A stretch of 64,000 bases of DNA. Source: Squalus acanthias. Taxonomy: Eukaryota. Made by a program: the position numbers and the translations under genes. The notes below the pieces were generated by a model that had not been told where the DNA came from, did not search any database, and was given only the letters and a program-made list of their open reading frames with translations. This document shows, one piece after another, positions 7,711-61,753 of the stretch. The stretch is taken from contig CM059432.1 in the NCBI GenBank assembly GCA_030390025.1, positions 78,556,001 to 78,620,000 of the forward strand. Direction: 5' to 3'. How positions within the stretch are numbered: position 1 is the stretch's first letter; the number at the start of each line of letters is the position of its first letter.

Positions 7711-7718
7711 ATATTACA

Positions 7719-8365: not shown

Positions 8366-8564
8366 CCCAGATCCCCATTGCTCAACACTTCCCCACCTTA
8401 CCATTCCTCTCTCACGGAACATCACAGCATCCTCTTGGGCATAAAGCTGAAATGAAAGCCACCACAAAACATACATTGCAAACATAATTTATAAATGATT
8501 CACTCCAGTACTACATAACAAAGTCAACTAATCACCCTTGTGCATTCCCTTCGTATCTGTCTTT

Positions 8565-10198
8565 CGTGTGCCTTTGCCTGTCCTAGTGCTCCTATGAAGA
8601 GCTGCCCCAATTTCTGCAGCATGGCTGGTAGAAGGCTGCTGACTTTCAGTTTTGAGACTGCAGATGGCCTTGCAGAATGACCTCAAGCCGCTCTGGGCCA
8701 AGAAGGCCCAACTGTAGACTGCATCACCCCAGCATGGATGGCAGCAGTCTAGGTTGGCTGGCTGACACGCAACAGGAAGGGCACAGGCGGAGTGGCAGTG
8801 GTGATGGTACGAATGCTGTCATCCTAAGAGGGAACAGCAGGCTCGTGCTCCATGGAGCCGCTGGCACTCCCCCTGGGGTGGCGCCTCAGCAATCCTAGTA
8901 ATCTGTTGGAGGACAGATTGCTGGACTGCTGTGACACCCTGCAAGCCCCTTTCCATACTGGTAAATGCAGCCACACTGGCAGCAGTCTGAGCTTGCACGA
9001 CAGAAGGCTGAGCTTCCACTGCAGCACTCCAACATTGGGTTGCTTCCACTTGTGCTGCAATGGAAGCTGAGACATCGCCCATCACACCCAGCATCATGGT
9101 TGGGTCCACAAGTGCTCTACTGGAGTTGCGCATCACTTCCATCCTGGAAATCATGGGCTCCAAGCTCTGTGCAAGGTTGGAGCCGACGTCCTCCATGCTC
9201 CTTGACAGTGACAACAGGCTCTCTGGCAGGCCTGCCAATGCACCAAGCATTTCAATGTGCATGCTCATCACCCTTCTTCTGAAGGCCGCCCCATCGAAGT
9301 CCTCATCTGAGTCCTCTGCAGCAGAACTCGTGCAACCTCGCCCTCCGGGGAGCTGGCACCTGCGCTACCCTTTCCCCCTGCCCTGGCTGCAGGCCACTCG
9401 TGCCCGGTAACTCACCACGTGCAGATCCCGCCTCTATACTACCCTCTAAAGTATGCATAGTGCCAGTTTCTGAGCTGGTGCCTGCGAGTGTCAGATCGAG
9501 TGACTGTGTCTTTTCTTCTCCATCACTCTCCTCTTGTTCTTCCTGCACAGGCTGGGCTGGTGGCAGTTCTTCGGTATCTGAAAGGAGAAAGGCACAAGGG
9601 TCGGGTTGTGGTGAAGTGAGGGGAAAAAGCAAGAGGTGCATGCTTACACCATCAGCAGCTTGTAAGTGAGAAGAGATTGTAGGGTGAGTAGCATGTGGGA
9701 AGAAGGATTAGGTATGGGTATACCGTCATCAACAATGCTTTCATCCTCGCCGATCACCACGGCCTCAGTGACGGTCTCTCCAATGATGTCTCACACTGTC
9801 TCCTCCAGCTGGGTCAGGATATGCGGCCGTGCCTGTCCCCCGCCTGTTAGCTCCTGTTAGCACCGGTTGTGCACCACCTTGGCCTGCAAGAGAAAGAGAA
9901 GTGTGTGAGTAAGTGTGGTGCAATGTGTTTGAGTGATGTGCCTGTCATGGTTGAATAGCTGGCAGTGTGTGCATGGTTTGAGTGATGTGCCTGTGAGGCT
10001 TGCAACAGTGGTAAGTGTGTGAGGGTGAGTTGAAGCTGTGATTGTGAGGTTTGAGTTGTGATTGATAGAAATTGTTGGTAGGTGAGTGATGGGGGTGTGA
10101 TGCATTGAGCAGCGTGTGAGGCTAGTGGTGCAGTTGGTGGGATATGTCATTTGAAGATGCATTCAATGACTTTGACCACTCGTGTGAGGTCAAACTTC
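8565..10198 (-). pseudogene. Harbinger Myb/SANT-like partner gene, degraded, spliced
   Basis: Exon remnants KKF-DLTRVVK (~10170-10198), AKVVHNR (~9720-9885), last exon MMSMHIEMLGAL homologous to 45363-46429; convergent with transposase. Confidence 0.75.
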
Positions 10199-12226: not shown

Positions 12227-12749
12227 AGTTGGGCATGTGCAGCAGGTGGCACAGCCAGGGACCAATGGGAACAGTTCCCAGCAGTCAGCTAAGTAGTGCT
12301 GGGTGGGGCAGGTGGTCGGGGTGGTACGCCCGGGGTCCTAAGTTTTCTTGCAAATTAACATGATAGGAGCGCACAGCCTAGCGAGGAACGTGCTGCTCAC
12401 AGGCTGTGCGCTCATCAGTGGGCCAAAGTTCGCACACTGGACTGCCCTCTGCACATAAAAAATTAAAAGTCCTTCAGAACTAGGCAGTCTGTAGCTCTTA
12501 AAGCTGAACTGCCTTCTGCACATAAAAAAAATCTAAAAGTGCTTCAGCACTAACACAAATGGCTCAACAGGCCAGGGAAAGGGCATCCAGGGTCTCAGAC
12601 ACAGCACTCCAGTTTTGTGCAAGGGGTCAACAATGCAAGAGGGGTCCTCTACCCACAGGGGGCCAGGAGCCCTCCAGAACAAAAGATGTGGGATCAGATC
12701 TCTTAGGCCGTTACTGACAGCAGTGTTGCACCCAGGACCTGGCTCCAGT

Positions 12750-13900
12750 GCCCAAAGAAGTTTCATGACCTCAGACCAGTGGTCAAGGTCAGTGAATGCA
12801 TCTTCAAAAGCTGTCTCCTACCAACTGCAACACTAGCCTCACACACTGCTTAATGCATGACCTCCCCCCGCCCCCCCCCCCACCCCCGGCCCCCATCACT
12901 CACCTATCAACAATCTCTACCAAACATGAGGCACACCTCACATTCCTAGCTTCACCTCACCCCCTTGTAGGAGACGGTGCTGGCCATTCTTGGCAGGTGC
13001 ATGGCTGAGCTCTTGGCCAGCGGTGGGACTGAAAGAATACAAGATGCTGGTATCCTCATATGTTATCCTCTTTCTCACATCCCACAATCTCTTCTGATTA
13101 ACAAGCTGCACATGGTGTAAACATGCACCTCTTGCTTTCCCGCCCTCCCCTCAACACAACCCTACGCTTGTGCCTTCCTCATTTCAGACACCCAAGAAAT
13201 CCAACCTGCCCAGCCAGTGGGTCAATAAGAAGAGGGAGAGGAGAGTGAAGAAGAAGAAGAAACACCATCACTCGGTTTCACAGTCCCAGCCACGAGCTTC
13301 TTGAGGTGGTCTGCAAGGCCATCTGCAGTGTCCCCCACTGAAAGTCAGCAGCCTTCCACCAGCCTGCTGCAGCCACTGAGGTAGCACTGCATGACATCAC
13401 TAGGATAGGCAAAGGCACAGGCAAGAAAGTCATTAAGGGAATGCACAAGGGTGATTAGTTGATTTTTTGATGTAATATTGGATGCATATATGGATAAAGT
13501 TTGATTGGAAGGTTTGCTTTGTGGTGGCTTTTATTTCAGCTTTGTGGCCAAGAGGATGCTGTGATGGTCAGTAATAGAGAGAAGGTAAGGTGTGGGACAA
13601 ATGTTGAAAGGGGAATTGGGGTTGCGTTCAGTGGTACTGCAGGTGGATGATTCGATCCCGGATATCCCGGCCAGAAAGGGGCTGTGTGGGTTGCCTCCTT
13701 TCTTCTGCTTTTTCCTCTTCTGCTTCCTGCTCTTCTGTTTCCCCCTCTTTCTGCAAACAGCTTGTCCCCTTTGCTGCCTCTGCTCCATCTCCATGTGATG
13801 CTGTAAGGGGGACTGCAACTAGAGCCTACAGGACTGGGAGCAAGTGGTCTTCTCAGAGACCTTCCTTTAACCACCAAAGCCTTGCAAACGTCCAGCAGCA
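12750..13900. mobile_element. Old Harbinger relic (Myb-like gene on +, transposase end on -)
   Basis: AAGAAGTTTCATGACCTC exon end at ~12756; 13300-13630 is an inverted homolog of 8370-8690. Confidence 0.6.
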
Positions 13901-14865: not shown

Positions 14866-15602
14866 GGGGTAAAAATTGAGTCGCGCCCCATTTGGGGCGC
14901 TAACCTCGCTACTTTTAGCGCCCCGAAAAAATTAGCGGCCCCGCGCCGGAACTTCAGTGGTTGCGCCCCAAGAGGGAAGTGGGGCGCCACTGGAAGCACC
15001 CCGCATCCCTCTTGGGGCGCTGCGAGGGAAGGCGCTGCGGCACATCGCACCGCGGTATTGCAGGCCTTCCTCCCCTTCTTAAAGGGGAGGGACCCTGCGC
15101 AGCGCGAACCGGGGCCCAGCTGGGCCCCCAGGGATCGGGAGTGCCGGCAAAAGAGCCCGGCACTCAAGAGAAGTGCCGGGCTCTTGGAGCGCAGCCGGCA
15201 CTTCACGGTGCGGGGGCTTCACGGGGGCCGGGGACAGCAACGGGGGCAGGTGCTGGCAGGCGGCCAGCAACAAAAATGGCCGCCTGCCACCTCCCCTTTA
15301 AATATCGCCGCCCCGGCCGCACGTACGCCTCCCTGAACCCGTCGGACATAGCGTCTGGCGGTAAATCAGGGGGCGCGACTGAAGATCGCGGCTGGAGCGC
15401 GAGCGGGGTGCTGCGCACGGCGATGACGTCATCGCCGGCGGCGCAGCGCCACAGGGCGCTACCGGCTGGCGCCGCCGCTAACCTCCCGCTGAATTTTTCG
15501 GGAGGCGTGGGCGGCGCTGCGCCCGGGCGTTAGCTGCTTTACGCCCCATTAGCACCCTCTTAAGGCGCTAACGGGAGGCGCAAGCAGCTGAATTTTTCCC
15601 CC
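14866..15602. mobile_element. Harbinger family A MITE
   Basis: TIRs GGGGTAAAAATT / AATTTTTCCCCC; TSD ATA; subterminal regions resemble 43947-48396. Confidence 0.88.
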
Positions 15603-31695: not shown

Positions 31696-34600
31696 GGGCT
31701 CGATTTTGCCAGGCCCGAGGAGGCAGGATTGGAGGCGTGTCAGGTGGTAAAATTGCAAAAAATGGCGGGCGGGCCCGATCCTGCCTCCAGCCCGCCTCCG
31801 AGCAATTTTCCCAAATGCGTGTTTTCTGACCCCGTTTCCATCCCACCTCTAAGAGGCGGGATAGGCCCTTAAGGCCCTTAACAACCAGTTAACTGCCTCT
31901 ATAATCCCATTTTGAGAGGCCTTTCTGATTTTACCACTTTTCCCACGTCCTGCACGTCTCCTCTGGAACACGCCAGTGAATCCTGGCAGCCTCACAAGTG
32001 GACTGCTTACTAACAGCTGCAGCTCCACCATTAAAAAGGAGTTTTCAGCAATCATCATTTGCAGGTGGCAGAACTTTGTTATCTCAGTTCTGGGGGAACT
32101 TTTAGCAGGCATACCCATTGTTGTGGAAGTTTGGAGCCTGACACCCATCTCCAGTGTGACCTCCTGGGAAACCCCTCTCGCCACCCTGACTGAGTGCTTC
32201 CTCAACTGAGGTATATACCAGAAGCATGGGAACCATTTATTTCCTTTCCTCCTGGACATCAGATTCGGACGAAGACCAGCCATGGCAGCAGCAGAACCAT
32301 GAACAACAGCACCACCAACAGCAGCAGCAACAACAGGAGCGTCAAGCTACTGCTCACCCACCTGAAGCTGCACAGGCCAGAAGGCGCCAGCGCGCGACCA
32401 CATTGCTGCCCGGGATGCAAGGGACGCACTCATCTTGGCCAGATTTGCTTAGCCTGCACAATCAAACACTTTTGCCTCGCACCTTCTTATCAGACCATCG
32501 ACAATGGCCAAGAACCTGCGGATTCCTATCACTCTGACCACCATACTGACAATTGCAAGTCGCCCTAAGCCCTCAATGTGGAAGTCCCATTAGCGAAATG
32601 ACACACGCCACAACTGCAACAGTTTGCCATCAGAATTTTTTATGACAATAAGTCACTGATGGCTTTTCAAAATTAAATACAACATTACACCCAAGTGACT
32701 ACCATTGTGACTACTTGTGCATTATCTTCCTCTCACGCGTGCTCCTACGTGGTGCTTCCCCTATGGCTTCTGCAGATGTGGAGGCCCCTTGCTCACTTTC
32801 TTGCTGCTCCTGTCTCAACACCTTTGGCGGGCGTCCTCTGGGGTTGCGAACCTGTGAGGGCTCGGCAACAGTCTGCTGCTCCTGCGGCTGTGCAGGGGTT
32901 GAGATGCCGATCTCAGTTGGGTGGGGTCTCTGGTGGGGCTCTGACCGAGGGCTTTGCAGTGGCATGGTCATGTGAGCGCTTGGAGAGGAGCCCCCACTTC
33001 CTTGTTGTCTGACACCAACATCCCTCTCATGGGTCAGCCCCACTTCAGAGCTAGCAAGTGGCTGGACAGCACCTTGCTGCACTGCAGGGGGGCCATGAGG
33101 ACCCGTTTCTGCACTGGAAGTCCTACTCCAGAGGACTTGCATGAAGGTCTGGTTTGTTTGCTCAATAGCTGACCATCGCTCCCCAAGAAATGTCAGTCTA
33201 TTCTGAACAATTACCATGTTTTCCATACCCTGGCGACTAAGCTCCTCCATGGACGTAGCCATCCTCTCCTCTACCGTAGCCATCCTCTCCTCTACGGTAG
33301 CCAGCCTTACCATGGAGGTAGCCATCCTTTCCAAGGAGGTTGCCATCTTTCCGTGGTGATGCGTTCATGCGCCAATGCCTCCACAAAGGCTCTACTCATG
33401 TTAGCGAAGGACTCCTCCATTTGCTCCACACTCGCAGCGACCCTGGAGACAAAACCTGCCAGAGACTCCCGCACCTGTTCCTGGAGTTCCAGCACCGCTC
33501 TCCTTCTGGATGGACCCGGAGGCACAGGGTCGACATGCAGCGGAGCCGAGCTGGGAGCGTCCTCTCCACTGCGACGAGGGCTCTCCACTGTTGTCCCTGT
33601 CTCCACCATCTGCTGATGCTCACTTGTGAGCTGTGATACACCAGGTGACAACTCTACACTATGTCCCGAGGGTCCCACCAAGGTGTGAGTGTCTGCGCTG
33701 GTGCAGGGTGCGCTTAATTCTGCTGACGGAGCGCCCTCAGAGGTTGCAGCTTCCTCTGAGGAGTCTGGAAGCTCAGGCTCTTCCTCCTGGACAGTGGGGA
33801 CGGGGGCTCTCGATGGTCCTGTGGGGGAGTAAAGGAAAGAGTTAGAGATGCGAGGTAAAGGTTGCATGCACATTGAATTGTGCAGATGATCATAAGTCAA
33901 TCTGTTAGAGCATCAGAATCATTATCAGTCACTCATGCAATGTCAATGAGAGAGATGCCAAGCTATTCTGTCACCAGCTTGCTGTGATGCGCCCGCCTGT
34001 CCGTCCCCCACTTGGGAATCCTCCTCGATCCTGGCAATTTCCAGGGCCGCCTCCCTCCGAGGTGGTGAGCTGGGCTACTGAGGGTGGCCATCCTCCTGTC
34101 CTCGCTCTTTCCCTCTTATTGTGGGCTCTCTTTTCCTGCATTGAGGGACACAAGTGGAGTTTGAGTGATAATGAAGGAGTGAGTGTAGAGAATCCATAGC
34201 ATAGATGCTTAGAAGGAGACAGAGGACCCTCCCTGTGTGTTGTAAGTTTTTGTCATTGCGTCACAGTGATAGGGAGTGTGAGGGCTGCATGGTCGAATAG
34301 TTAAGTGAATGGGACCATAGAGAGAGAGGGAACGGGTAAGGGTGCAGGGATGTCAGTGTCAAGTGGGATGTGGAGGAAGAGGTTGGCAAAGCAGAGTGCT
34401 GGTGAGGAGAGGCGATGGGGATGAGATTGAGGGTGATGAGAAAGTCATACTCACTTTTCCTGTGCGGAGAAGGTCATGAAACCTCTTCCTGCACTGCAGC
34501 CAGGTTCTGCAGCACATAGAGATGGCATTGACCTCTTGGACCACTTGCAGCCACACAGCTTTAGTCTGTTGTGGTGGCTTTTTTCTCCCTGAGGAAGGGA

Positions 34601-34965
34601 AGAGCACCTCCTTATTAGATCTTGCTACCCGCACCAGAGCTTGGAGGGAGGGCTCATCAAAGCGAGGTGCACACTTTTGCTTGCCGGTGGACATGGTCGG
34701 TAAATGAAGTCTTATACAATGTCCAAAGCATTTCCAGTCTCCAGAAGAAGGCTTGCAGGCCTTAAATCCAGCAGCACTGATGACGTCATCAGAGGCAACT
34801 TTCAGGATGGAAAGATTAATTGGGCCAGGGGTTCCCACGCGCTGGAACTCAAGTGCCCAATTAGGGGAAAATCGCACTTTTTTCCCACTTCACATCGGAG
34901 TCGGGTTCCTGACACGAAAACCACCTGACACGCCCCTAGCCCGCCCCAATGGCAAAATCCAGCCC
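31696..34965. mobile_element. Harbinger family B element with transposase almost fully deleted
   Basis: 16-bp TIRs GGGCT(C/G)GATTTTGCCA; transposase N-terminus (32226) joined to C-terminal ARFA* (~32455); Myb-like gene on -; flanks AAA/TTA are not a clean TSD. Confidence 0.85.
32711..34694 (-). pseudogene. Harbinger Myb/SANT-like gene, 3 exons, frameshifted
   Basis: Exon 1 34694-34455 (PRFDEPSLQALV..WLQCRKRFHDL), exon 2 34135-33975 (EKRAHNKRERARTGG), exon 3 33818-32711; GT-AG junctions. Confidence 0.82.
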
Positions 34966-35599: not shown

Positions 35600-36500
35600 A
35601 AGACAGCATGAGCAGGAAAGGGATGCCTATGATATCAAAATGCCACAAGTAGCATACCATTAGGTCCTGAAGTTGATCTCCTACAGCAACAGCTACCTGG
35701 TAATGACAATGAAATGTGCCTAAAAAGGCTGACGTTTAGCGGGGAGTAACTAGCAAAGCTCCTTCACAAATATCTGTACAGCACTGCAGTGGCTGTCAAA
35801 GTCAACGTGGTGTTCAATATTTATGAATCGGGCTCCCTCAAGGATAGTACTGGGGACATCTGCAGTGCCAGCCAGTTTGCTGTCTACAGGTGTATCAGAG
35901 GTATAACAGAGGCATTACTCAACAGGACAATAACTACATTCCTTTCACCACTGACCAACAACAACATAATTATACAGAACTGTTGGCTTTTCCAGAGTCC
36001 AGAAGTTTAGCTGCATCCATGTTGTCATTTGGTTCCTGGGAACATTGTAATCGAAAAGAGAACCTTTTATCTCTATGTTCACATTGAATGAGACCATTGC
36101 CACAAGGTTATTAAGGTTAACACTTGCTTCTCTGGACGTTCTCACAATACCTTAATTTTAGGCAATCATCTGTGCATCCCATATTTGAAGGGGAAGGAAA
36201 AGTGGAAGGATGGCACCAGGGAGACCAAATGAACCCAAAGCAGCCATGGCTCATGACAGCTACGTGTCAATCATGGACAGAAGCAGACTGCAGGTACAAC
36301 AAAGCTCATAACTAGAATGATCAAACATACCATTGGTAGGTTGACACAACAATTCACAAGTCTGGAGCAACCAGTAGCAACCCTACAGTACAACGTCCCA
36401 AAAGAAATGTCTTCTGCTAAATGCTCCATAACTTCTTCCTGAAAAGAGGCTTCATCATGTAGAATGGCAAAGCCATAGCAGAAGTCAAGGGTGAAAATGG
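35600..36500 (+). pseudogene. Ancient Harbinger transposase relic
   Basis: AVKVNVVFNIYESGS..GDICSASQFAVYRCIRGITEAL; RQSSVHPIF..GWHQGDQ..PWLMT. Confidence 0.7.
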
Positions 36501-36734
36501 CAATGAGGAATTAGGAATGGTACCAGAAATGCAACAAGAAGACTGGTGCATCAGGCACCAATTCCAGATGGCTTCCAAGGAGTGTCACAGCTACACCATA
36601 GATTAAGAGGAGCAAACCATATCAGCTAGGTTACTGTGGCCAGACTAACTTGTCCTACACTTTAATAATTAGTTCTTCAAATATCATCTATGACCATCTT
36701 ATTCTAGGCTCTTTCTATACTTTAATCAATGACA

Positions 36735-37146
36735 CCACCTTAAACATTCACTCCCTCCACCACCGGCGTACCGTGGCTGCAGTGTGTACCATCTACAAGA
36801 TGCACTGCAGCAACTCGCCAAGACTTCTTCGGCAGCACCTCCCAAACCCGCGACCTCTTCCACCTAGAAGGACAAGGGCAGCAGGCGCATGGGAACACCA
36901 CCACCTCCAAGTTCCCCTCCAAGTTACACACCATCCTGACTTAGAAGTATATCGCCGATCCTTCATCATCGCTGGGTCAAAATCCTGGAACTCCCTACCT
37001 AACAGCACTGTGGGAGTACCTTCACCACACGGACTGCAGCGGTTCAAGACGGCAGCTCACCACCACCTTCTCAAGGGCAACTAGGGATGGGTAATAAATG
37101 CTGGCACTGCCAGCGACGCCCTGATCCCATAAACAAATAAAAAAAA
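36735..37146 (+). mobile_element. CR1/L2-group LINE 3' end
   Basis: Near-identical to 30765-31173; A-tail. Confidence 0.85.
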
Positions 37147-37424
37147 CTCAGCAAGTGCTCAAGTCAACTGTAGGGCATTCATTTCTTCTTTTGTGTTAGG
37201 TGTAAATGTTGGCAACTTGAGTTGGCATGGTGATGTCCCTTGGTGCTTGTACTTTGTGCAAGTTATGTGGCACCTAACTTCTAAATAATTCCCTTATGGA
37301 AATATTAAGTTGTCCTGTTGCAGAGTTGCACTGAGGGTCTGCTGGGATTCTGGTGATCCTTGACCTTCATTGTTTATGTATTGCAAGGGCCCAGCATGTG
37401 AACAGCCACATCCAAGACTGTTTT

Positions 37425-38198
37425 CTTTTATATTAGTTCACGGGATGTGGCCGTCGCTGGCAAGGCCAGCATTTATTGCCCATCCCTAATTACCCTTGAG
37501 AAGGTGGTGGTGAGCCGCCTTCTTGAACCACTACAGTCCGTGTGGTGAAGATACTCCCACAGTGCTGTTAGGGAGGGAGTTCCAGGATTTTGACCCAGTG
37601 ACGATGAAGGAACGGCGATATATTTCCAAGTCAGGATGGTGTGTGACTTGGAGGGGAACTTGGAGGTGATGGTGTTCCTATGCGCCTGCTGCCCTTGTCC
37701 TTCTAGGTGGAAGAGTTCGTGGGTTTGGGAGGTGCTGTCAAAGAAGCCTTGGCGAGTTGCTGCAGTGCATCTTGTAGATGGTACACACTGCAGCCATGGT
37801 ACGCCGCTGGTGGAGGGAGTGAATGTTTAAGGTGGTCGATGGTTGTCAATCAAGCGGCCTGCTTTGTCCTGAATGGTGTCGAGCTTCTTGAGTGTTGTTG
37901 GAGCTGCACTCATCCAGGCAAGTGGAGAGTATTCCTTCACATTCCTGACTTGTGTCTTGTAGATGGTGGAAAGGATTTGGAGAGTCAGGAGGTGAGACAC
38001 TTGCCGCAGAACACCCAGACTCTGACCTGCTCTTGTAGCCACAGTATTTATGTGGCTAGACCAGTTAAGTTTCTGGTCAATGACCCCCAGGATGTTGATG
38101 GTGGGGGATTCAGCGATGGTAATGCCGTTGAATGTCAAGGGGTGGTGAGACTCTCTCTTGTTGGAGATAGTCATTGCCTGGCACTTGTGTGGCATGAA
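37425..38198 (-). mobile_element. CR1/L2-group LINE 3' part
   Basis: Same family as 30300-31173 in opposite orientation. Confidence 0.85.
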
Positions 38199-39371
38199 TA
38201 AGTGTGGAAACCCTTGCAGTTGACAAACACTCCTGGGTGATGATGGGGTGCCCTGATGGCCACATGTGTGCAGTCGAAGACGCCCTGTACCTGTGGGAAG
38301 CCAGCCAGAGTGGCAAAGCCGAACGCCCGCTCAGTAACACTGGCTTCATCAGTGGCAAAGTTTATATAAATGGCTGAATTGTCAAAGAGGGCATCGGTTT
38401 TCTGTGTAATGCATTTGTGGGCAGCCGACTGCGAGATGTCGCAAATGTCTGCTGCAGATTCCCTGGAAGGAGCCTGAGGCGAAGAAGTTGAGATCACTGG
38501 TGACTTTGACAGCCACTGGTAAGGCGTGTCCACCCATTCCTCTGGGCTGCATGTCTTTCTCCAGCAATGTGAAAATGTCTGCGACAACCTGGCGTGATAG
38601 CCTGAGCCTCCTTTGGCACTGCTGCTCAGTCATGTTGAGGAAGCTCATCCTCTGCCTGTATGCCCTGTGTTGGGGTACCGCCTCCAGCGCGGTGCAGCCT
38701 TGCACTGATGCCCTCTGTCCTGTGCAGCATCAGGTGGTTGAGGAGAAGGTTTGTGGTGTTGTTGTTGGGGCTCATTGTGGTCTGATTCTATGGACCAAGG
38801 TGAGACAGTATAAACAGCACCCGTGCTGATGGAATAGATGGCAGGTCAAGTAGAGATGAGAGAAACATTCTGTCACTGGTGAGAGAGTTCTTCCAATGAG
38901 GTGAGATTGGATGGCAACTTTGCTACAAACACTTGCAGCCTGTAGAAAGCTAAATCTGTGCTAGAAATGCAGTCAGCAACAGCTTCTGCCTGAGGAAAGT
39001 GATCAGCTGTGAGGTGGGAGGTTTTATAGTACATTTCATGCTGTCAACTAATCAGCTGGATCAATGGCCACTCAACTCCTGCCTTAGGTTAACAGACATG
39101 GTTGCCGAGCTGCGTGAATCCCGTGGTCATTCATGGAATTTGAAAGGTAGGCTAAAAAAGGGGCTTAAGGGTTTGACAACAAGCTGATAATGATTTGAAT
39201 TAGGTCGCCTGCCTCTGCCGTTCGAGTCGCTGCTGCATCGGCAAACGCACCTGAGGGAAAGGCACGTGGGGGTGGGATGACGACAGGTTCCCGACCCGAT
39301 CCAACTTATTTCAAATTTCCCACCCGACCCACCTCTGATCGCGCCCCCATTGACCCCAGAAAATTCCGGCC
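38199..39371 (-). mobile_element. Harbinger fragment: transposase 5' half and one TIR
   Basis: [45 protein letters not shown]; terminus AAAATTCCGGCC. Confidence 0.82.
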
Positions 39372-41646: not shown

Positions 41647-42536
41647 GGGGGGAAATTTTGATTGCTTTGCGCCTCCCGTTAGCATCCTAAGAGGGCGCTA
41701 ATGGGGCGCAAAGCAACTAGTGCCCGGGCGCGGTGATGTTTGTGCTGCTCGCGAAATTGACCAGACATTTTGCGGAGGCGTTAAACACTACCGCCACGAT
41801 CTCCTGCGCCCGCAGATCGTGATGTCAGTCGAGCGTGCAACGCCCTGGTAGCACCCCGGACCAGATATTGAGTGGCGCCCCCTGCCTTTCCACCTGCCGC
41901 TAGCAATGACAGGTTGAGGGGAGTGTTTTGCAGTCGGGAAGGGACTGGGGGAGCGCTATTTAAAGGCGGCTGCTAGCAGCTTTTTTTGTCATCAACAGTT
42001 TTGCACCATGCATTCTGAGAGAGAGAGAGACTTCTGGAGAGATTCAACGCTGTGTGATGGAGTTTTGGGCTACTGAGCAGCACTTTGCAGGTTCATTTTG
42101 ATTTGACCTTCCTTGCATCGATTTAGAAGCGACTATGGGGGCTGCACTCTGAGCTCTTTCCCTGGGCTTCTCCATTGTTCTTTCCAGCAGATTTGATGTA
42201 CAGGTCTCTCCAGGCCGAGATTCAAGGCTGCAATGAGCAGGGTGTGGATGGGGAGCAAGATCGACCCTCCCCTTTAAGAACTGGCTGGCGCTAGTGTGTC
42301 TGTGTTCCATTGCTGACTGACATCACATGAGCTTCGCCAGCGCTCTGAGGTAGCGCCTCGCTCCTCGGCGTTAGCGCCTTAAGAGAGGTGTGTAGCGCCT
42401 GATTTAGCGCTCCAATCACCTCCAGGGGCAATAGAAGCCAAGTTTGCAGTCGGAGGCGATAATTAGCGCCAGGCGCTAAACTTTGCGCCCGGCCGCTAAT
42501 TGCGCCCCAAACGGGACGATACCGAATTTCTCCCCC
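41647..42536. mobile_element. Harbinger family A MITE (deletion derivative)
   Basis: Inverted homolog of 53113-54005 with the same internal junction; flanks TTA/GTA. Confidence 0.88.
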
Positions 42537-42776: not shown

Positions 42777-44303
42777 GTACACCAATAGCAAAATTCTATG
42801 CTCAAAAAAGGAAAGCCTAAGAATACAATTTACAGTTGTACAAGCCTATCAGCTGTTACATTTGCATTCCTCTACATTTATGGGAATGTAATTTTAAAGA
42901 TGCTTTCCCCTTGATGGCTTTACTTTTAATTGGTGTGAAAAATACTGAAACGAATTGATGACGGATTTTCTGGATTTGTTAAAGGTTACTCTGGTCATGG
43001 ATTAGTCGAAAAAGATAGCTTTATGTCGAGTCCTCTGAGCATCTGATGACTAATCCACATCGATCCCAACACTACAAAGAAGAAGTAATTTTAGATATAC
43101 TTTTTAGCTGTTGGAATAGTTTAAACTGATGTTGCATGTTCAGAATATAAGTGGCAAAGATAATACATAGCTGTTAACAATGTAGTTACCAACATATTGT
43201 ACAATGGGAGAGTTTCAAGAATACCTTTCATTTAATGTGCCTTCTTAAGGAAAATTTAGTCCAACCAAAGGCATCTGTTTATGCAAATTTTTACTGAGGT
43301 TCAATAACAAAAGCAAAAATGAATTAGCTATATATCAAAACCTTGTGCATCTGGGTGTCGAGGATGATAGATGTCTTTGTTTGATGTTGCTTTATAATGT
43401 TATTCGCTCAGTAGGTGAATGCACCATTTGCTGTGTTACCGTCATAGAAACTAGGAAGGCCCCACATTTAATCCCTGGTCTGAGCCGAATTAAATGATTT
43501 AAGCCAGAGTGCCAGTAGGGACACTAAACTTGGTTTTAGCATTCTTGGGTTAGGGAGTAGGAGGGAAAGATCATAAGAAATAAGAAATAGGAGCAGAAGC
43601 AGGCCATTCGGCCCCTCGAGCCTGCTCCGCCACTTAATGAGATCATGGATGATCCGATTTTAGCCTCAACTCCACTTTCCTGCCCGCTCCCCATAACCCT
43701 TGATTCCCCTGTTGCTCAAAAATCTGTCTATCTCAGCTTTGAATATATTCAATGACTCAGCCTCCACAGCTCTCTGGGGTAAAGAATTCCAAAGATTCAC
43801 GACCCTCTGAGAGAAGAAATTGCTCCTGATCTCCATCTTAAATGGGCGACTCCTTATTCTGAAACTATGCCCCCTAGTTCTAGATTCCCTGACGAGGAGA
43901 AACATCCTCTCAGCATCTACCCTGTCCAACCCCCTCAGAATCTTATGGGGTAGAAATTAGGTCGCGCCCCATTTGGGGCGCAAATATCGTCCGCGCGCAA
44001 ATATTAGCGCCTGGCGCTAATTATCGGCACTGACAGGAAACTTCACTTTTACCGCCCCGGGAGGTGAGTGGAGCGCTAAATTAGGCGCTGCACACCTCTC
44101 TTAAGGCGCAAAGGCCTAGGAGTGAGGCGCTAACTCAGCGCACGAGCGCAGCGCAGCTGCTGCCAGTTAGCGCGGGAACACAGACACACTGGCGCCGGAC
44201 ACTTCTTAAAGCGGGGGGGGCCACTTGCTCCCCAGCCACACCCTGCTCATTGCAGCCTTGAATCTCAGCCTGGAGAGACCTGTAATCCATTTTGCTGCCA
44301 AGC

Positions 44304-46429
44304 ATGGAGAGGGTGAGAGAACGCGCTCATCGCTTCACCGAGCGGGCCTTGGATGCTCTGGTTGACGCAGTGGAGCGCAGACGATGCATGCTGTTCCCAG
44401 AGAGTGGCAGGAGGCCTTTGCCACGCGAGTTCAGAAGAGTGTGGAGGGAGGTGGCTCAGAGCGTCTCCTCCAGGAGCATGGTGCCCAGGACCCATGTCCA
44501 GTGCCGCAAAAAGTTCAACGACCTCACTCGGGTCGTCAGGGTGAGTGGCTTTTTCTCAATACCTCTCCATCCCTCCATCTCAACCTCACTCTATGGCCAG
44601 AGGGTCTTAAAACCCCAATGCACAACACTCATCCAACACCTATGGCCCTTTCATCAAACACACACACACATTCCACACTTTGCATACAGTAAGGGCTATT
44701 CACCTATGGGAGGCACATCAGGCAAGACCATGGCTGCATACAGTAAGGGCTATTCACCTATGGGAGGCACATCAGGCAAGACCATGGCTGCATACAGTAA
44801 GGGCTATTCACCTATGGGAGGCACATCAGGCAAGACCATGGCTGCATATTGTAAGGGCTATTCACCTATGGGAGGCACATCAGGCAAGACCATGGCTGCA
44901 TATTGTAAGGGCTATTCACCTATGGGAGGCACATCAGGCAAGACCATGGCTGCATATTGTAAGGGCTATTCACCTATGGGAGGCACATCAGGCAAGACCA
45001 TGGCTGTATATTGACTCAGATGCTGTCCTTTTTCTTGCAGGCTAAGCTGGCTCATAATCGGAGACAGCAGCAACGGACGGGTGGAGGGCGGCTTCAGCTG
45101 CAACCCCTCAGCGATCTGGAGGAGCGCGTCCACAGGATTGTGGCAAGCCAGGTGATCGGTCCCGTCGCCACTGGGGACACCGACCCCGTTGTGGACAGCA
45201 ATGGTAAGGTCATCACCTTTTTGTCCTCTGTCCTTCCACTTGTCCCTCACAATACCAGCCTTTGACACTTTCAATCCAACTTGCTAACTCGCTGCACTTA
45301 TTCCTCCCTTACTGCCACCCTGTCCTCACGCTAAAGCCACTCTTGTACCTCCCTGCTTTCAGATGGTGATTCACCAGCTGAGGAGATGGTCCCTGAAGCT
45401 GCCACTGGGAGTGATGCTGCAGCTGAGGAGGAAGAGGAAGCCGGAGCATCAGTGCCACCCTCTCCCGAGGAAGCCCATGGCCACACTGGGAACACGCCTT
45501 CCCCGGAGGGGAGCAGGGGGGAAGGGGCTGATGATGGTGAAGTTGCAGGACCCAGCGGGCTGCAGCAACGCCATGGGGGGGGGAGGGAAGAACGGGGGAG
45601 CAGGGGGGAAGGGGCTGATGATGGTGAAGTTCCAGGACCCAGCGGGCTGCAGCAACGCCATGGGGGGGGGAGGGAAGAACGGGAGCCTTCTCCCCAGAGG
45701 GAGAGTATGCCAGACACTCCTACTGCAATGGACGCAGAGGAGGAGCGGCTGATTGCAGAAATGAACAGCCAGGCGGTGGTCATGCACACTGAGCTCATGG
45801 GTGCAGTGGGAAGGGTGCCCGAATGCATTGAGGCACTGGCAAGGAGTGTGGAGCACTTCGCTGTAGCACAGGCGGATGCCACACTAAAGCTTACTGCTGC
45901 AATTCAGTCACTGGCTGCCAGGAACCCATCTGAGCCTGCTCTCATGCAGACTCAGATTGAGGCCACGCGAGCACTGACTGCTGCCATCCTCGATGGTTCG
46001 TGCACATGTCCCCGGGGCTGTCACCGCGCCGCAGCAGGCCAGCAATCTGTTCTCCGGCAAATTGCTCCGGATGCTGAAGTGCTGCCCCGTGGGAGTGCCA
46101 GTGTGTCGGGCGAGCAGGGAGTTGCTGTCCTCTCTCACGATGACAGCATTCCTGCTGCCAACACTGTCACTTCTCCACTGCACTTGCCACCGCCTGTAGG
46201 ACAGACTGCTGCCGCCCATGCAGAGTTGGTGCAGTCTGCAGCCGGGCCCTCCAGGCCCAGAAGTGGTCGAGGCCGTCCTTCAGGGGCATCTGCAGTGTCA
46301 GGGTGTGACAAGCAGCAGCCTTCCACCAGCCTTGCTGCAGCCACTGAGGTCCCATTACGGAGGAGCAGTAGGGTTAGAAGGGGGGAAGTGCGCAAGGGAA
46401 GGAGATCACCCTCGAAGGGCAAAAAGTAG
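44304..46429 (+). CDS. Myb/SANT-like DNA-binding partner protein, spliced, 488 aa
   Basis: Exons 44304-44540, 45041-45203, 45363-46429 (1467 nt) join in frame through GT-AG introns; RFTERALDALV..WREVAQSV..RTHVQCRKKFNDL..RTGGG. Confidence 0.85.
44681..45013 (+). repeat. 54-bp minisatellite, 6 copies, in Myb intron 1
   Basis: Unit TGCATA(CA/TT)GTAAGGGCTATTCACCTATGGGAGGCACATCAGGCAAGACCATGGC. Confidence 0.95.
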
Positions 46430-46723
46430 GAGGTGTGCCAAAATGCTGGTCATTTTTTTATTAAAGGCCGAGGTTCATGGCCCAACTTTTGTTTAGTGTT
46501 TTGGACATTATCTCCAGGTTGTGAGAACCAGTTATGTTATTGACTGTTTTTTTGTGTTTATTTCTGTGAGTTTGTCATGAGGAATTGACACACACAGAGT
46601 TTGTACAATAAATAAGTTTCTGTATTCAAAATATACATGGCTGGTGGTTGGAATTATTGGTGCCTTGGCCGGCTTAGGGGTTGCGTGCTGGGTTGATTCG
46701 TGTTTGTAGCACTGGCAGGGGCC

Positions 46724-47884
46724 CTAGAAGCGGCTTGCTATTAGTCGTTGACGGACGGCCCTTGCAGTTTGACCATTGTGGGCCGCCCTCCTGCCTTGGT
46801 GCTGCTGCTGATCATCGTCCTCGGCCTGTTCCTCCTCTTCCTCCTCCTCCTCTTGTGGTGCTGCAAGGCCTGGTGGCATTGGCTGCGTCCTGAGGATTGC
46901 CATGTTGTGCAACATGCAGCACACCACTACGAATTTGGAAACTTGCTCAGGCGAGTACTGCAGGGCTCCTCCGGAATGGTCCAGAAAGCGGAATCGTTGT
47001 TTGAGCACGCCGATTGTGCGCTCAATAATGTTCCTGGTTGCTTGTTGGCTTTCCTGGTACCGCAGCTCAGCAGGGGTGTTTGGCGCACGGAGCGGTGTCA
47101 TCAGCCAGGTGCTCAATGCGTACCCCTTGTCCCCCAGAAGCCAACCAACTGGCTGATGCGGTGCCTCGAAAATTTCTGCCACAGTACTCTGGCGCAGGAT
47201 GAAAGCATCGTGGCAGCTGCCCGGATAGTGGGCATTGACAGCGAGAATCACCTGTCTGTGGTCACAGACCAACTGCACATTCAAGGAATGGAACCCCTTT
47301 CTGTTCCAGAACTCCTCTGCATTCTCTCGCGGAGCACGCAAAGCCACATGCGTGCAGTCAATGGCGCCCTGCACCATGGGGAAGCCCGCTACCCTCGCAA
47401 AGCCCATAGCACGGTCATGCTGCTTGTCTGGGGTCATAGGGAAGGAGATGAAGTCTCGTCTCCTTGTGAAGAGGGCATTGGTGACCTGCCGAATGCAGCG
47501 ATGCACCGCAAACTGGGAGATATTGGCGAGGTCCCCAACAGCAGCTTGGAATGAGCCAGTGGCGTAGAAGTTCAAGGCCACTGTGACCTTCACTGCCACC
47601 GACAGAGACGTCCTGGACCTCAGCTGAGGCTGCAGATCTGGCTGCAGCAGGTGGCAGAGCTCAGTGACCACCTCCTTGCTGAATCGCAGCCTTCGCAAAC
47701 ACAGCTCCTCGGACATGTGGATGTAGGAGAGCTGTTCACGATATACCCTGGGAGGGTAAGCTCTCCTGTACATGCGCCTGATGGGCCTCCTCCGTCTGGC
47801 CATCATTGCCACTCTCTGTCTGCGTCTCACTCTGCTCCGATTGAGCTGGAGCAGGACGACGCCCCCAATCATTGCAGCCCCCAT
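46724..47884 (-). CDS. Harbinger DDE transposase (HARBI1-like), 386 aa
   Basis: Uninterrupted [50 protein letters not shown]. Confidence 0.95.
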   Translation of the reverse strand: MGAAMIGGVVLLQLNRSRVRRRQRVAMMARRRRPIRRMYRRAYPPRVYREQLSYIHMSEELCLRRLRFSKEVVTELCHLLQPDLQPQLRSRTSLSVAVKVTVALNFYATGSFQAAVGDLANISQFAVHRCIRQVTNALFTRRRDFISFPMTPDKQHDRAMGFARVAGFPMVQGAIDCTHVALRAPRENAEEFWNRKGFHSLNVQLVCDHRQVILAVNAHYPGSCHDAFILRQSTVAEIFEAPHQPVGWLLGDKGYALSTWLMTPLRAPNTPAELRYQESQQATRNIIERTIGVLKQRFRFLDHSGGALQYSPEQVSKFVVVCCMLHNMAILRTQPMPPGLAAPQEEEEEEEEQAEDDDQQQHQGRRAAHNGQTARAVRQRLIASRF

Positions 47885-48789
47885 CTTCTCTTTGCCAGAA
47901 AAGTAATGAGGTACAGCAACGAAAGTAGCAGCAAAGTTAGGATGAACTAGGCAAAACTACCTCACAAAGCGTTGAGTCAATGTAGAAGTCTCTCTCTCTC
48001 TCTCTCCGAATCTCTCTCTCTCTCTCAGAACGAGTGGTGCATAAATGTCGACCACAGAAAAAGACAGGAAGAGGCCCCCTTTAAATAGCGCCCCCCCCAG
48101 CCCCACACCGATTGATAACGTTCCAGTCTTCCGGTCGTTGGAAGCGCCAGGCGGTAAGGCAGGGGGCGCCACTCAATTTCCGCTCCGGGGCGCCCCAAGG
48201 GCGTTGCACCACGGACTGATGTCACAATCTGCGCGCGCAGGTGGTCGCAGCGGTAAGTTTTAGCGCCGCCGCACAATCTCAAGTTAAGTTCTCGAGCGGC
48301 GCAAACAGCGCTGCGCCCGGGCGTTAGCGCCTTAACGCCCCATTAGCGCCCATTTAAGGCGCTAACGGGAGGCGCAACCAACTGAATTTTTACCCCTATA
48401 TGTTTCAATAAGATCACCTCTCATTCTTCTAAACTCCAATGAGTATAGGATCAACCTGCTCAACCTTTCCTCATAAGACAACCCTTCCATCCCAGGAATC
48501 AACCTAGTGAACATTCTCTGAACTGCCTCCAATGCAAGTATATCCCTCCTTAAATAAGGGAACCAAAACTGTACGCAGTACTCTAGGTGTGGTCTCACCA
48601 GCGCCCTGTACAGTTGTAGCAAGACTTCCCTACTTTTATACTCTATCCCCCTTGAAATAAAGGCCAACATTCCATTTGTCTTCCTAATTACTCGCTGCAC
48701 CTGCATTTTAACTTTTTGTGTTTCATGTACGAGGACACCCAAATCCCTCTGTACCATTGCATTCTGTAGTCTTTCTCCATTTAAATAAT

Positions 48790-49548
48790 GGCCCGTATTT
48801 TCCGATCCCCACGGATGTGTACGAGCTGTGTACACACCCGTAGGGGCCGCACAAGTGCCGGTTTCAGGCATGCGAAGCGCATGCGCTGAAAACCGGCACT
48901 TCCAATCTGTCAAGAATCCTCTTGACAGATCCTCACCTGCCCTGGAGAAGGGCCTCTGCGGGCAGGGAGTTGCGCTTTCGGCAGAACCTCCGCTCGCTGA
49001 AAATCTTTAAAAATCTTACACCTGGTAAAAGCAGGCATAAGGCATAAGGCTTGCTTTTACCAGCATAAGAGTTTAAAAAGGTAAAAAAAAAAAATTCCCA
49101 CTCATTTATAATTTAAAAATACTTTCAAAAAAAGGTAAGTTTATTTTTAGCTCTGTAAAAAACTTTAATTATTTTTTTCAAAATTTTTGTTTAAAATATT
49201 TAATTTAATGTAATTTTAATTAATTTTAAATACGTGATTTAAAAAAATATATATTTAATGTTTTAGTGTGTTTTTTGAGTGATCCCCATTCATACTTTTG
49301 ACAGTTCTATGCTGAGAGACCTGTCAAAAGTGTGAAGGGGGATTCCCTTCTTTGATTGGTTCTCCATGGCCCACGTGATCCCAGGGACACTTGCGAACTT
49401 CCTGCGCCCCTGGGATACCTGGGCCTCTGTGCGCACGCACCAGGAGACGCCCAGGAGCAGAAGTGTTGGGACCTACAGAGCCAGCAGGTAACTTCGTAGA
49501 TTTTTTCCAGATCGGAGGCAGGAATCCTCCGATCGGAAAATCCGGGCC
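48790..49548. mobile_element. Harbinger-type MITE, third family
   Basis: TIRs GGCCCGTATTTTCCGATC / GATCGGAAAATCCGGGCC; TSD AAT; AT-rich core ~49070-49270. Confidence 0.85.
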
Positions 49549-53112: not shown

Positions 53113-54005
53113 GGGGGAAAAATTCAGTCGCGCCCCGTTTGGGGCGCAAATATCGTCCGGGCGCAAAAATTAGCGCCTGGCGCTAATTATCGCCACTGAC
53201 TGGAAACTTCACTTTTAACGCCCCTGGAGGTGATTGGAGCGCTAAATCAGGCGCTGCACACCTGTCTTAAGGCACAAAGGGCGAGGAGTGAGGCGCTAAC
53301 TCAGAGCGCTGGCGAAGCTCATGTAATGTCAGTCAGCAATGGAACACACACACAATGGCACGGGCCAGTTCTTAAAGGGGATGGTTAATCTTGCTTTCCA
53401 TCCACATCCTACTCATTGCAGCCTTGAATCTCGGCCTGGAGAGACTTGCACATCAAATGTGCTGGAAAGAACAATGGAGAGTACCAGGCAAAGAGCTCAG
53501 AGTGCAGCCCCCACAGTCTCTGCTGAATCAATACAAGGAATGGAAAATCAAAATGAACCTGCAAAGTGCTGCTCAGTACCCAAAACTCCTTCACACAACG
53601 TTGAATCTCTCCAGAAGTCTCTCCCTCTCTCTCTCAGAATGCGTAGTTCAAAAATGGCACCAACAATAAAAGACAGGAAGCGGTCACCTTTAAATAGCGC
53701 TCCCCCTTTCCCTTCATGACTGCAGAACGCTCCCCTCAACCTGTCGTTGCTAGCGTCAGGCGGTAAGGCAGGGGGCGCCACTCAATATCCGCTCCGGGGC
53801 GATACCGGGGCGTTGCACACTCGAGTGACGTCATGATCTGCCGGCGCAGGAGATCGTGGCGGTAGTGTTTAGCGCCGCCGCAAAATGTCTAGTTAATTTC
53901 TCGAGTGGCGCAAACTTCACCGCGCCCGGGCGCTAGCTGCTTTGCGCCCCATTAGCGCCCTCTTAAGGCGCTAACGGGAGGCGCAACCAACTGAATTTTT
54001 CCCCC
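53113..54005. mobile_element. Harbinger family A MITE (deletion derivative)
   Basis: Perfect 16-bp TIR GGGGGAAAAATTCAGT; TSD TAT; arms match both ends of 43947-48396. Confidence 0.92.
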
Positions 54006-58610: not shown

Positions 58611-61162
58611 GGCCGCGATTTTCCCAGCGGAGTCAGGTTGGAGTCGGGTTGGCTGGTCAGCGGGTTCCGGTCCCGCTGCCGGTTTCAGCCGCTCCGAAAT
58701 AACAATTTTCATTTAACTGGGTGTGTGCCCAATCATTGGGTTCAGGTGTGCTGCTTGCCTCTGCTGACATCTTCGATTCAGGTGCATTTAAGGGGCCCAT
58801 GTAGCCTTTGGATTTCATTTCCTTTCTGATGCTCCTGATAACTGGTCTTTGGAAGATGACTGCTGCAAGAGCAAAGCTGCTCCTCGATTTGATGATGACT
58901 CCCTCCATACTCTTGTGGAGGGAGTAAGAAGGCGCCAGGAGGTTCTGTTCCCTCCCAATGGCCGGAGAAAGCCTCCTCAGCACACAAAGGCAGCTCGGCT
59001 GCAAATTGCCGAGGCGGTAAGCGCTAGGTCGTTGTGTTGACGCACCTGGGTGCAGTGCCGAAAAAGGTTCAATGATCTGCTATGCACAGCAAAAGTGAGT
59101 ATAACATCACACTTACGTTCAATCTGCTTCCCATCTGTTCTCATCACCAGCACTCTGCATTGTCAGCCTACTCCTCCACATCCCAACTTACCCTTACTTC
59201 CCTTGCACCCTTACCTACCCCTCTCTCTCTATGTACAGAATCACTTCACCATCCTACTATGCACCCCTCACACTCGCTCTCACTGTTATGCGATGACAAT
59301 AACTAACAATGCACAGGGAGGCACCTTGGTATTGGCACCTCACTCCATCTTTGTCTCCCTCTAAGCTTCTATGTTATGGAGTCTTTACACTCACTCCATC
59401 AATCTCGTTGAAACTCCACTTGTGTCCCTCATTGCAGGAAAAGAGAGCCCACAATAAGAGGGAGAGGGAGGACAGGAGGAGGCCCACCTTCGATGGCGCA
59501 TTTAACAAATGCTGAGGAGGCTGCTCTCGACATCGTTGCAGGTGCAGAGGAGCTGGAAGTGGGGGATGGAGAGACAGGCGCAGTAGAGCAAGCTGGTGAC
59601 ACAATAGATTTGCAACCCTCTCATTTAGATTTCATGAGTGACTGAGATGGCATATGATGTTCATAGAGATTGACTTCTGATCATCTGCACAATAGGATGT
59701 GTTGGCTACCTAAATATCACATGTCTAACTCATGCCTTTACTCCCCCACAGGACCATTGAGAGCCCCCCTCCCCACTGTCCAGGAGGAAGAGCCGTAAGA
59801 CTCCTCAGAGGAACCTGCAGCCTCTGAGGGAGCAACATCACCAGAAATCAGCGCAGCCAGCACCAGCACAGATACGCACACCTCAGTGGGTCATTCGCGA
59901 CATAGAGTAGTGTTGTCACCTGGTGTATCACAGCTCACAAGTCAGCATCAGCAGATGGTGGAGACAGGGACAGCAGTGGAGAGTCCTCATTGGAGGTTGC
60001 AGAACGCTCCCAGCTCTGCTCAGCTGTATGTAGACACTGTGCCTCTGGGGCCATCCAGAAGGAGAGCGGTGCTGGAACTTCAGGAACAAGTGCAGGAGTC
60101 TCTGACAGGGTTTGCATCCACGGTAACTGCGAGTGTGCAAAGAATGGAGGAGTCCATGTCAAACATGAGCAATGCGGTGGTGCACGCAATGGCGAATGTA
60201 GGTGCTGCCATGGAAAGGATGGCAACCTCCATGGAGGACATAAATCACCAGACTCAAATGAACATGGCGACTCTTCTAAATAGATGGTCAGATATGGAGG
60301 ATAGATGGACATCTATTGAGGAGAGACACCAGAGGTACATGGACATCCCCGTTATGAGGACTGTCAGTACAGAGACGGGTCCTCATGGCCCCACTGATGT
60401 GCAGCAAGGTGCTCTCCAGCCACTTGCTAGCAGTGAAATGCGGGTGACCCATGAGAGAGATGTTGGTGGTCGACAACAAGGAAGTGTGGGCTCCTCTCCA
60501 AGCACTCACACTCCCATGCCACTGCGGAGCCTTCGGTCAGAGCCCCAGATTTCTCACCTAACTGAGATGGCCATCTCAGCCCCTGCACAGTCGCAGGAGG
60601 AGCAGACTGTTGCGGAGCCCTCCCAGGCTCCCAAACCCAGAGGACGTCTGCCAAAGGCGTCTAAGCAGGCACAGCATAGAAGTGAGCAAGGTGCCTCTAC
60701 ATCTGCTGAGCCACGGGGGAAGCACCACATAGAAGCACGTGTGAGAGAAATTTAACACACAAATAGTCACAAGGATAGTCACTTGGGTGTTTTGATCTCA
60801 TACAAAGTAATGTTTGTCATCGTGATTTTAAATGTATTAAAGAAATGCAATGGCAAAGTTTCAAAGAGTTGGCCTATGTGTGCTCAGAAATGGAAGTGTC
60901 ACAGTGAGGGGTCAGGGTGCCTTTCATCTGTAATGATAGTGCTGAGAGTGATAGGAAACCACAGTTTATTGTACAGATGCTGTGTGGTGTGTTAAGAAGG
61001 TCTGCTAGACATTCATTTACATATGCCAGCCACATGTGGTTGATGCGTAAAGTTACGCGAATCTGGCATGGATTAGTGTATCCCTTGCCTCACGGCCAGC
61101 AGGTGGTCGCACGCTGATGGAATTGGCACATCCGCCTCCGCAAAGTGTTCCTCATCTGCTGC

Positions 61163-61193
<31 letters not shown>

Positions 61194-61753
61194 GAGGAGG
61201 CTGTGCGTTGAGCCACTTGTTCCTCAGGGAGCGCTAAGCCACGCTGCTGTGTGATGTTGTGCAGGGCACAGCAGACCACGATGATTCTGGAGGCCTTGGC
61301 TGGTGCATACTGTACGGCTCCACCAGATCTGTCGAGGCATCTGAATTGCATTTTGAGCAAGGCAATGGTTTGCTCTATGATGCTTCTGGTGGAAATGTGG
61401 CGCACACTGTAGCACTCCTCAGCTTCGTTTGATGGCCTCCTCATCAGTGTCATTAGCCACTATTTCAGGGGAGAGTCCTTCTCCAAATAGCCATCCGGAA
61501 AGTTGGGTTGGCGGATTGAAGAGCGGAGGCACAGTAGACTGCTGCAGGATGAACATGTCATGGCAACTGCCAGGGAACTTGGCGCAAACATGCATAATGT
61601 TCTCCCTGTGGTTACACACCAGCTGGACGTTAAGGGAATGGAAGCCCTTGCGCTGATAACAAATACAGCTGGGTTGTGATGGGGTGCCCTAATGGCCACA
61701 TGTGTGCAGTCTACGACACCCTGCACCCTTGGGAAGCCTGCCATATTTGCAAA
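58611..61753. mobile_element. Degraded Harbinger (one TIR, Myb-like gene on +, transposase 3' part on -)
   Basis: TTA|GGCCGCGATTTTCC terminus; Myb exons ~58856-59094, 59438-59596, 59752-60755 with stops; transposase 61073-61753 (VVDCTHV, PGSCHD, RSIIEQTI). Confidence 0.85.

Follow-up and report, generated by a model that had tools for sequence, protein, structure and literature searches.

The element described here is a PIF/Harbinger transposon of 4,450 bp, located at 43947-48396 in a 64-kb window of Squalus acanthias DNA; the window is the whole stretch of 64,000 nucleotides that was analysed. With moderate confidence, we favour the reading that it is one copy of a young, high-copy, autonomous, Nuwa-like shark Harbinger family that expanded in an ancestral burst, and that this copy has been fixed since then, with intact frames but probably weakened. 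The ends of the element and the sequence broken by its insertion were as follows.

43570..48780, minus strand: host CR1-type long interspersed nuclear element (LINE) fragment broken by the insertion (parts 43570-43946 and 48400-48780)
43944..43946: left copy of the target duplication, TAT, read from the letters and an empty CR1 paralogue
43947..43962, plus strand: left terminal inverted repeat (TIR), 16 bp, 13 of 16 positions complementary to the right TIR
48381..48396, minus strand: right TIR
48397..48399: right copy of the target duplication, TAT, read from the letters and an empty CR1 paralogue

The boundaries proposed in the earlier note were correct: TAT stood on both sides of the element, and a paralogous CR1 copy held a single TAT. 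The interrupted LINE fragment, which we take to be CR1 by that family's protein, was 76-89% identical to longer paralogues within the window. When the duplication was checked on three CR1 paralogues of the window, the flanks overlapped by exactly 3 bases; at the insertion spot, one paralogue carried the single TAT and the two others carried TGT. The target duplication, which had been called precise together with the TIRs, was thereby verified against an empty paralogue, but the TIRs themselves were imperfect, and with three mismatches in 16 bp the word overstated their pairing.

Between these ends lay two convergent genes.

44304..44540, plus strand: Myb-like gene exon 1, 79 aa, Myb/SANT trihelix domain (PF13873, 38.3 bits against a cut-off of 21.7)
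44681..45013: 54-bp minisatellite in intron 1 of the Myb-like gene, 6.2 copies, 98% matches
45041..45203, plus strand: Myb-like gene exon 2, 163 bp, with private R116Q and A126T and one silent change
45363..46429, plus strand: Myb-like gene exon 3, with an acidic linker, a helical region and a basic tail
46430..46723: spacer between the two genes, with AATAAA on the plus strand at 46607 and on the minus strand at 46457 (motif match only)
46724..47884, minus strand: DDE transposase, 386 aa, open, with catalytic D176, D252 and E288, conserved D226 and private C300F

The transposase frame was open over its full length and carried all DDE motifs, as had been claimed. The protein matched DDE_Tnp_4 (PF13359) at 127.6 bits. 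Its conserved residues D176, K196, D226, D252, P264, R284 and E288 were separated by gaps of 19, 29, 25, 11, 19 and 3 residues, in agreement with the spacing D(19-29)K(29)D(18-40)D(11-19)P(18-28)R(3)E that PMC4122938 gives for PIF/Harbinger elements in the wide sense (PHIS). Only 6 of 386 positions deviated from the 70% consensus of the relatives. The predicted structure had a pLDDT of 88.9 and was closest to DDE transposases (piggyBac, Z 9.9, root-mean-square deviation 5.1, 225 aligned residues); the solved structures contained no Harbinger transposase relative by sequence and gave no Foldseek match at E 0.001. Residue 300, in the conserved RFRCL motif following E288, was C in 99 of 113 relatives and in 36 of the 38 that keep the complete catalytic set, and F in this copy. 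This change at a conserved cysteine is private to the copy, as described below, and has probably weakened it, although its frames are open. Immediately ahead of the catalytic glutamate, residues 277-280 (47045-47056) gave Y-Q-E-S-Q against Y-N-x-x-H in the relatives.

The nearest proteins were elasmobranch models named "putative nuclease HARBI1" (sawshark, rays and others), 45-65% identical to the transposase; the top 64 among the matches listed were all named from sharks and rays, the best at 65%, which points to an elasmobranch host. D176, D226, D252 and E288 were all kept in 38 of 120 among the matches listed, and we regard the names as automatic labels on transposon copies. Taken at face value, such names and the two open frames would suit a domesticated host gene pair of the HARBI1/NAIF1 kind rather than a transposon copy. 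This explanation is extremely improbable and was refuted by the multi-copy, duplication-flanked state of the element, with its TIRs, its insertion within a LINE and its very high copy number; moreover, the closest named relative was just 65% identical, and single genomes held dozens of paralogues.

The three Myb-like exons had GT..AG borders and joined into a 488-aa frame with one stop, as the earlier note had proposed. The product scored over the cut-offs of both PF13873 and PF13837, and exon 3 contained an in-frame 87-bp duplication at 45508-45683. The splicing was compared with 75 Myb-like relatives, 74 from HMMER and one gene model; exon 1 had found one relative by word search and 74 by HMMER, and a word search with exon 3 alone found none. 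The spliced model was matched by 72 relatives, with the joint of exons 1 and 2 crossed in 58 of the 72 alignments. The region of the second joint was spanned by 41 relatives, and one relative aligned to residues 5-485 at 36% identity. Three decayed Myb-like relics in the window had a GT donor at the same codon boundary, one of them with the same acceptor as well. The three-exon model is thus sound by homology rather than by transcripts, because the relatives are predicted proteins. The alternative, a 242-aa frame reading through from exon 1, was rejected, as alignment continued past the joint in only 4 of 73 relatives. In the spacer, an additional minus-strand hexamer match was found at 46557.

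The element was present in 20 of 24 listed sequencing runs, which came from 10 studies and bore six organism labels. Four runs were compared in detail: X1, X6, X17 and X19, the last two guessed to be RNA. Organisms C-F held 0.49-0.56 of the words of the element. X6, from a differently labelled organism, comprised 184 contigs with a total of 0.14 Mb; six of these contigs matched the element over 3,556 bp at about 99.6% identity (15 differences, 0.42%), and no indel was listed in the transposase frame. In so small a run, presumably only abundant and uniform sequence assembles. The X6 contigs broke on both sides of the intron-1 minisatellite, so it is probably family-wide. In X1, the depth was 15.6 on the single-copy left flank, and 19 interior bins summed to 1.1e5-9.8e5. 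This sum is not a copy number; after correction for contig overlap by a factor of 31, the lowest value was still about 235 and the median 950, relatives of at least 90% included. The shares of the "other letter" in X1 were not used as a consensus, since contigs of deep runs probably over-represent pieces that bear variants and the reading covered only some 55% of the run; X6 was used instead to judge variants. These results support the assignment of the element to a young, abundant family.

Eleven of the X6 differences were listed and four more were not. At seven of the eleven, all four runs read the other letter, so these changes are private to the window copy; three were found in X6 only and one was ambiguous. 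In the transposase, one private change was C300F; the Myb-like protein had three (R116Q, A126T and S448C), two others were silent, and the last fell in the spacer. The description of the copy as intact therefore holds for its open frames but not for its proteins. Three of the seven changes fell within 30 bp of exon 2 (45150-45179), which may be a short conversion tract.

For the epaulette shark, PMC10587355 gives a mutation rate of 7e-10 for each site and generation (95% range 1.4-14.1e-10), together with a nucleotide diversity of 0.002. At this rate, a divergence of 0.2-0.4% corresponds to roughly 3-6 million generations. With mutation so slow, near-identical copies need not be recent and present mobility does not follow from near-identity. 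The sharing of the family across organism labels fits an ancestral burst.

The two ends of the element differed in composition from the rest.

43947..44303: left subterminal region, CpG observed/expected ratio 0.83, five TAGCGC (GGCGCTAA-type) motifs
48051..48396: right subterminal region, CpG observed/expected ratio 1.09, five TAGCGC motifs, TTTAAA at 48080

CpG-rich ends were preserved, as had been noted, against a ratio of 0.43 in the whole window, and TAGCGC was absent from the 3,747 bp of the interior. The GGCGCTAA repeats near the ends are candidate binding sites of the Myb-like protein. The left subterminal region is a candidate promoter of the Myb-like gene, and the right one, with its TTTAAA, a candidate promoter of the transposase gene.

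In zebrafish Harbinger3_DR, both proteins are needed, and the Myb-like protein binds the ends and the transposase and carries the latter into the nucleus (as cited in PMC2836001 and PMC9392472); what the earlier note said of this requirement and of the reconstruction of that system agrees with these papers. By analogy, the trihelix domain of the shark Myb-like protein would bind the repeated motifs near both ends, and its C-terminal half may bind the transposase and carry it into the nucleus. The transposase would then excise the element and insert it at A-N-N-Y/[3 bp]/R-N-N-T, the site read from the insertions themselves, with duplication of TAT or ATA. The family would have amplified when it could still encode its proteins, most likely some millions of generations back and earlier than, or close to, the divergence of the organisms that carry it. 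The window copy would have been static and fixed since the burst, gathering its roughly seven private changes, one at the conserved transposase cysteine, and may still move in trans if a functional copy survives.

The contact between the two proteins was modelled with the transposase and exon-3 residues 120-240 of the Myb-like protein. The model scored 0.65 against 0.00 for the best control, at least 88% of the contacts agreed between runs, and the pLDDT of the partner was at least 64. Of the solved pairs, 51 of 78 reached the score mark, as did 2 of 108 mismatched ones; among eukaryotic pairs, the counts were 39 of 65 and 2 of 126. Since no relative was found among solved structures, the score is unlikely to stem from a similar complex known to the model. 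The model suggests that the Myb-like protein binds the transposase, with the predicted contact at residues 362-374 in full-length numbering, a lead that can be tested.

Several observations weigh against an autonomous family of which this copy is a weakened member. No splice joint was found among the joints listed, 15 of 129, in X17 and X19, and X17 contigs continued unspliced past the donor of intron 1 and throughout intron 2. The transposase has Q277 where 104 of 115 relatives, and 36 of the 38 catalytically complete ones, have N, and Q280 where 96 of 117 have H; neither was among the listed X6 differences, and both are probably family traits. The predicted transposase folds well with F300, and two of the seven private changes are CpG decays. 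The age estimate combines one copy with a rate from another species, and younger copies would escape it. In the model, the contact involves residues at the truncated end of the fragment that are only partly conserved, and it falls on the catalytic domain of the transposase, whereas the Myb-like protein binds the N-terminal end of the transposase according to PMC9392472.

A family that is mobile now, with intact source copies expressed and spliced in the germ line, new insertions segregating and this copy a slightly damaged member, seems to us credible but doubtful. It would agree with the very high abundance and homogeneity of the family, with the X6 transposase frame free of indels, and with the five of nine common transposase subfamily variants that are silent (P ~0.05). 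One X19 contig also stopped precisely at 45362, the position at which a spliced and an unspliced path would come together, a post hoc and weak point. In X1, a joint connected the right end (48396) with the left end (43947), with one base between, at a depth of 45, about 3x the single-copy flank; it may represent tandem copies arranged head to tail or a circle left by excision, perhaps derived from a sister miniature inverted-repeat transposable element (MITE). However, the presence of the family at 99.6% in a differently labelled organism, and of half its words in four more, is what an ancestral burst would leave, and no contig among the listed joints was spliced. Contigs from three of the four compared runs did connect 43943 with 48397, omitting 4,453 bp (4,450 + 3), which bears out the boundaries of the element. 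As signs of polymorphism, however, these empty-site joints were set aside, since CR1 paralogues that map at 90% likeness cannot be distinguished from them.

Amplification could also have been in trans. In this case, the transposase of the family would never have worked, or no longer work, and a sister Harbinger using the same GGCGCTAA-rich ends would have multiplied the element, with the frames kept open by slow shark mutation. Q277 seems to be shared by the whole family, both the window and X6 are rich in sister families that have related ends and transposases of their own, and the shark mutation rate is low. We nevertheless consider this quite improbable: the catalytic positions are all kept, deviations from the consensus are few, the subfamily variants lean to silent, and the copies that were amplified are the full-length 4.4-kb ones. 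The ancestral burst of an autonomous family remains the reading that we prefer.

The element belongs to the Harbinger superfamily; its anatomy resembles that of NuwaI, and its duplication lies outside the published classes. Its DDE spacing, the Myb/SANT domain encoded by its other gene, its short TIRs and its duplication of 3 bp place it in PIF/Harbinger in the wide sense. Strict PIF/Harbinger elements duplicate TWA, whereas TAT was found here and ATA, ATA and TAT in three relatives. The element shares with NuwaI a GGG-starting TIR (class range 12-61 bp), DDE and Myb/SANT genes and a length near 4.5 kb, but not the CWG duplication. It differs from NuwaII in the target, which is T|TAT|A instead of C|TNA|G, and from Pangu, which has an ANT duplication and a second gene without a known motif, in its TAT/ATA duplication and its Myb domain. 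The classes given in PMC4482050 are TWA, AT, none, ANT, CWG and C|TNA|G, with neither TAT nor ATA among them. The difference from the usual TAA/TTA, pointed out earlier, was thus confirmed, with CWG a proper comparison besides TWA.

Four related elements in the window (starting at 6965, 14866, 43947 and 53113) duplicated ATA or TAT, and a fifth had TTA/GTA; one element end in X6 was preceded by CAA. C preceded the duplication in three of the four ATA/TAT elements, the exception being T|TAT|A at 43947. In eight elements, the flanks A at -4, Y at -1, R at +1 and T at +4 were found at 26 of 32 positions, against 12.3 expected, a value reached in 0 of 200,000 draws. Harbinger3_DR has the target AAACACCWGGTCTTT, with the same four flank bases A, Y, R and T (PMC3016246). 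The preference in the flanks is thus not new; the difference is confined to the central triplet, over a handful of sites.

Two MITEs lay on either side of the element.

41647..42536, minus strand: 890-bp MITE, same sister family as the next, flanks TTA/GTA, nine TAGCGC motifs
53113..54005, plus strand: 893-bp MITE of a sister family, TAT duplication, nine TAGCGC motifs

The MITEs had been described as cognate. They are related to the element but are not direct derivatives of it: they were 87% identical to one another and 75-91% to the element ends, and both contained the start of a different Myb gene. The MITE at 53113-54005 was 91% identical to the element in its first 190 bp, 75% in the 160 bp that follow and 81% in the 340 bp on the right; for the MITE at 41647-42536, the corresponding stretches gave 84%, 84% and 76%. 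This sister family was also assembled in X6. The nine TAGCGC motifs kept in each MITE make cross-mobilisation plausible.

Other GG-ended elements in the window were found at 572-1260 (ACT), 6965-7710 (ATA), 14866-15602 (ATA), 48790-49548 (AAT) and 35791-38514 (AGT/ACT); three of the five fit the ANT class, and all have much of the flank motif. Older, decayed Harbinger relics at 7696-9900, 12611-12790, 31800-34900, 35700-38670 and 58885-61753 make the superfamily dense in the region, and two of them retain the convergent Myb/transposase layout; intron positions are in common as well. At 2287-6234, broken frames resembled a Gypsy-type long terminal repeat retrotransposon, with what we take to be protease, reverse transcriptase, RNase H and integrase motifs.

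A close comparison is Harbinger3_DR, named NuwaI-2_DRer in PMC4482050, which also has DDE_Tnp_4 and Myb_DNA-bind_5 genes, a length of ~4.2-4.5 kb, a short TIR and a 3-bp duplication in a palindromic site with the four flank bases given above. It differs in its CWG triplet in place of TAT/ATA and in a Myb-like protein of 221 aa against 488 in the shark element; it was rebuilt from a consensus, whereas the native frames of the shark element are open. Harbinger-Snek, as described in PMC8437027, is similarly a recent high-copy vertebrate Harbinger with intact two-gene copies, non-autonomous derivatives and inferred activity; there are 269 intact copies in the sea krait Laticauda colubrina. It differs in that RNA reads from a congener cover both genes and that horizontal transfer was argued. 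NuwaII of turtle, amphibian, fish and amphioxus (PMC4482050) shares GG-starting TIRs, two genes, a similar length and often a C before the duplication, but TAT/ATA falls outside its TNA. The same paper counts 11 NuwaI and 22 NuwaII potentially active families across eukaryotes; these 33 families and the sea krait copies do not support the idea that intact natural vertebrate Harbingers are rare. Coelacanth Harbingers (Smith et al. 2012, as cited in PMC5381603 and PMC9179366) look young in a slowly evolving fish and are said to be accumulating still. Harbingers are expressed in teleost gonads (PMC9179366), a naturally active animal Harbinger exists in a nematode (PMC13668399), and native Spy tools exist (PMC11304231).

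For sharks, a passage of PMC4482050 states that PHIS elements are absent, and one of PMC9179366 asks for more cartilaginous fish to be tested. In a 2025 shark genome paper (PMC12498223), Harbinger appears only as the commonest type of DNA transposon, and the word "Harbinger" does not occur in PMC4255032 or in the Greenland-shark preprint. Our literature search found no description of a shark Harbinger family; Repbase and Dfam, which lay outside this search, may catalogue the family or its duplication.

The novelty is modest: intact vertebrate Harbingers are already in print, and what differs from the published classes is the central triplet. A 2024 survey is said to have covered 130 DNA transposons in human cells and may have tested native Harbingers. 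The most far-reaching proposal is that the family is still mobile with hundreds to thousands of near-identical full-length copies, that its majority-allele proteins transpose in vertebrate cells without reconstruction, that TAT/ATA within A-N-N-Y...R-N-N-T is a new target class and that the Myb-like partner docks at the edge of the catalytic domain of the transposase by a short motif, residues 362-374; taken together, we think this unlikely.

A young and abundant shark Harbinger family is now fully annotated, where an earlier survey had sharks without these elements. In the cited papers, the vertebrate Harbinger mobilised in cells was a reconstruction. What sets the choice of target could be tested directly with a near-native pair that keeps the flank preference but has a different central triplet, and the pair might serve as a two-component tool selective for its sites. 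A dead family would be just one more young transposon; if it is mobile, it would provide a natural, two-component, sequence-selective vertebrate transposon and a handle on the choice of the central triplet.

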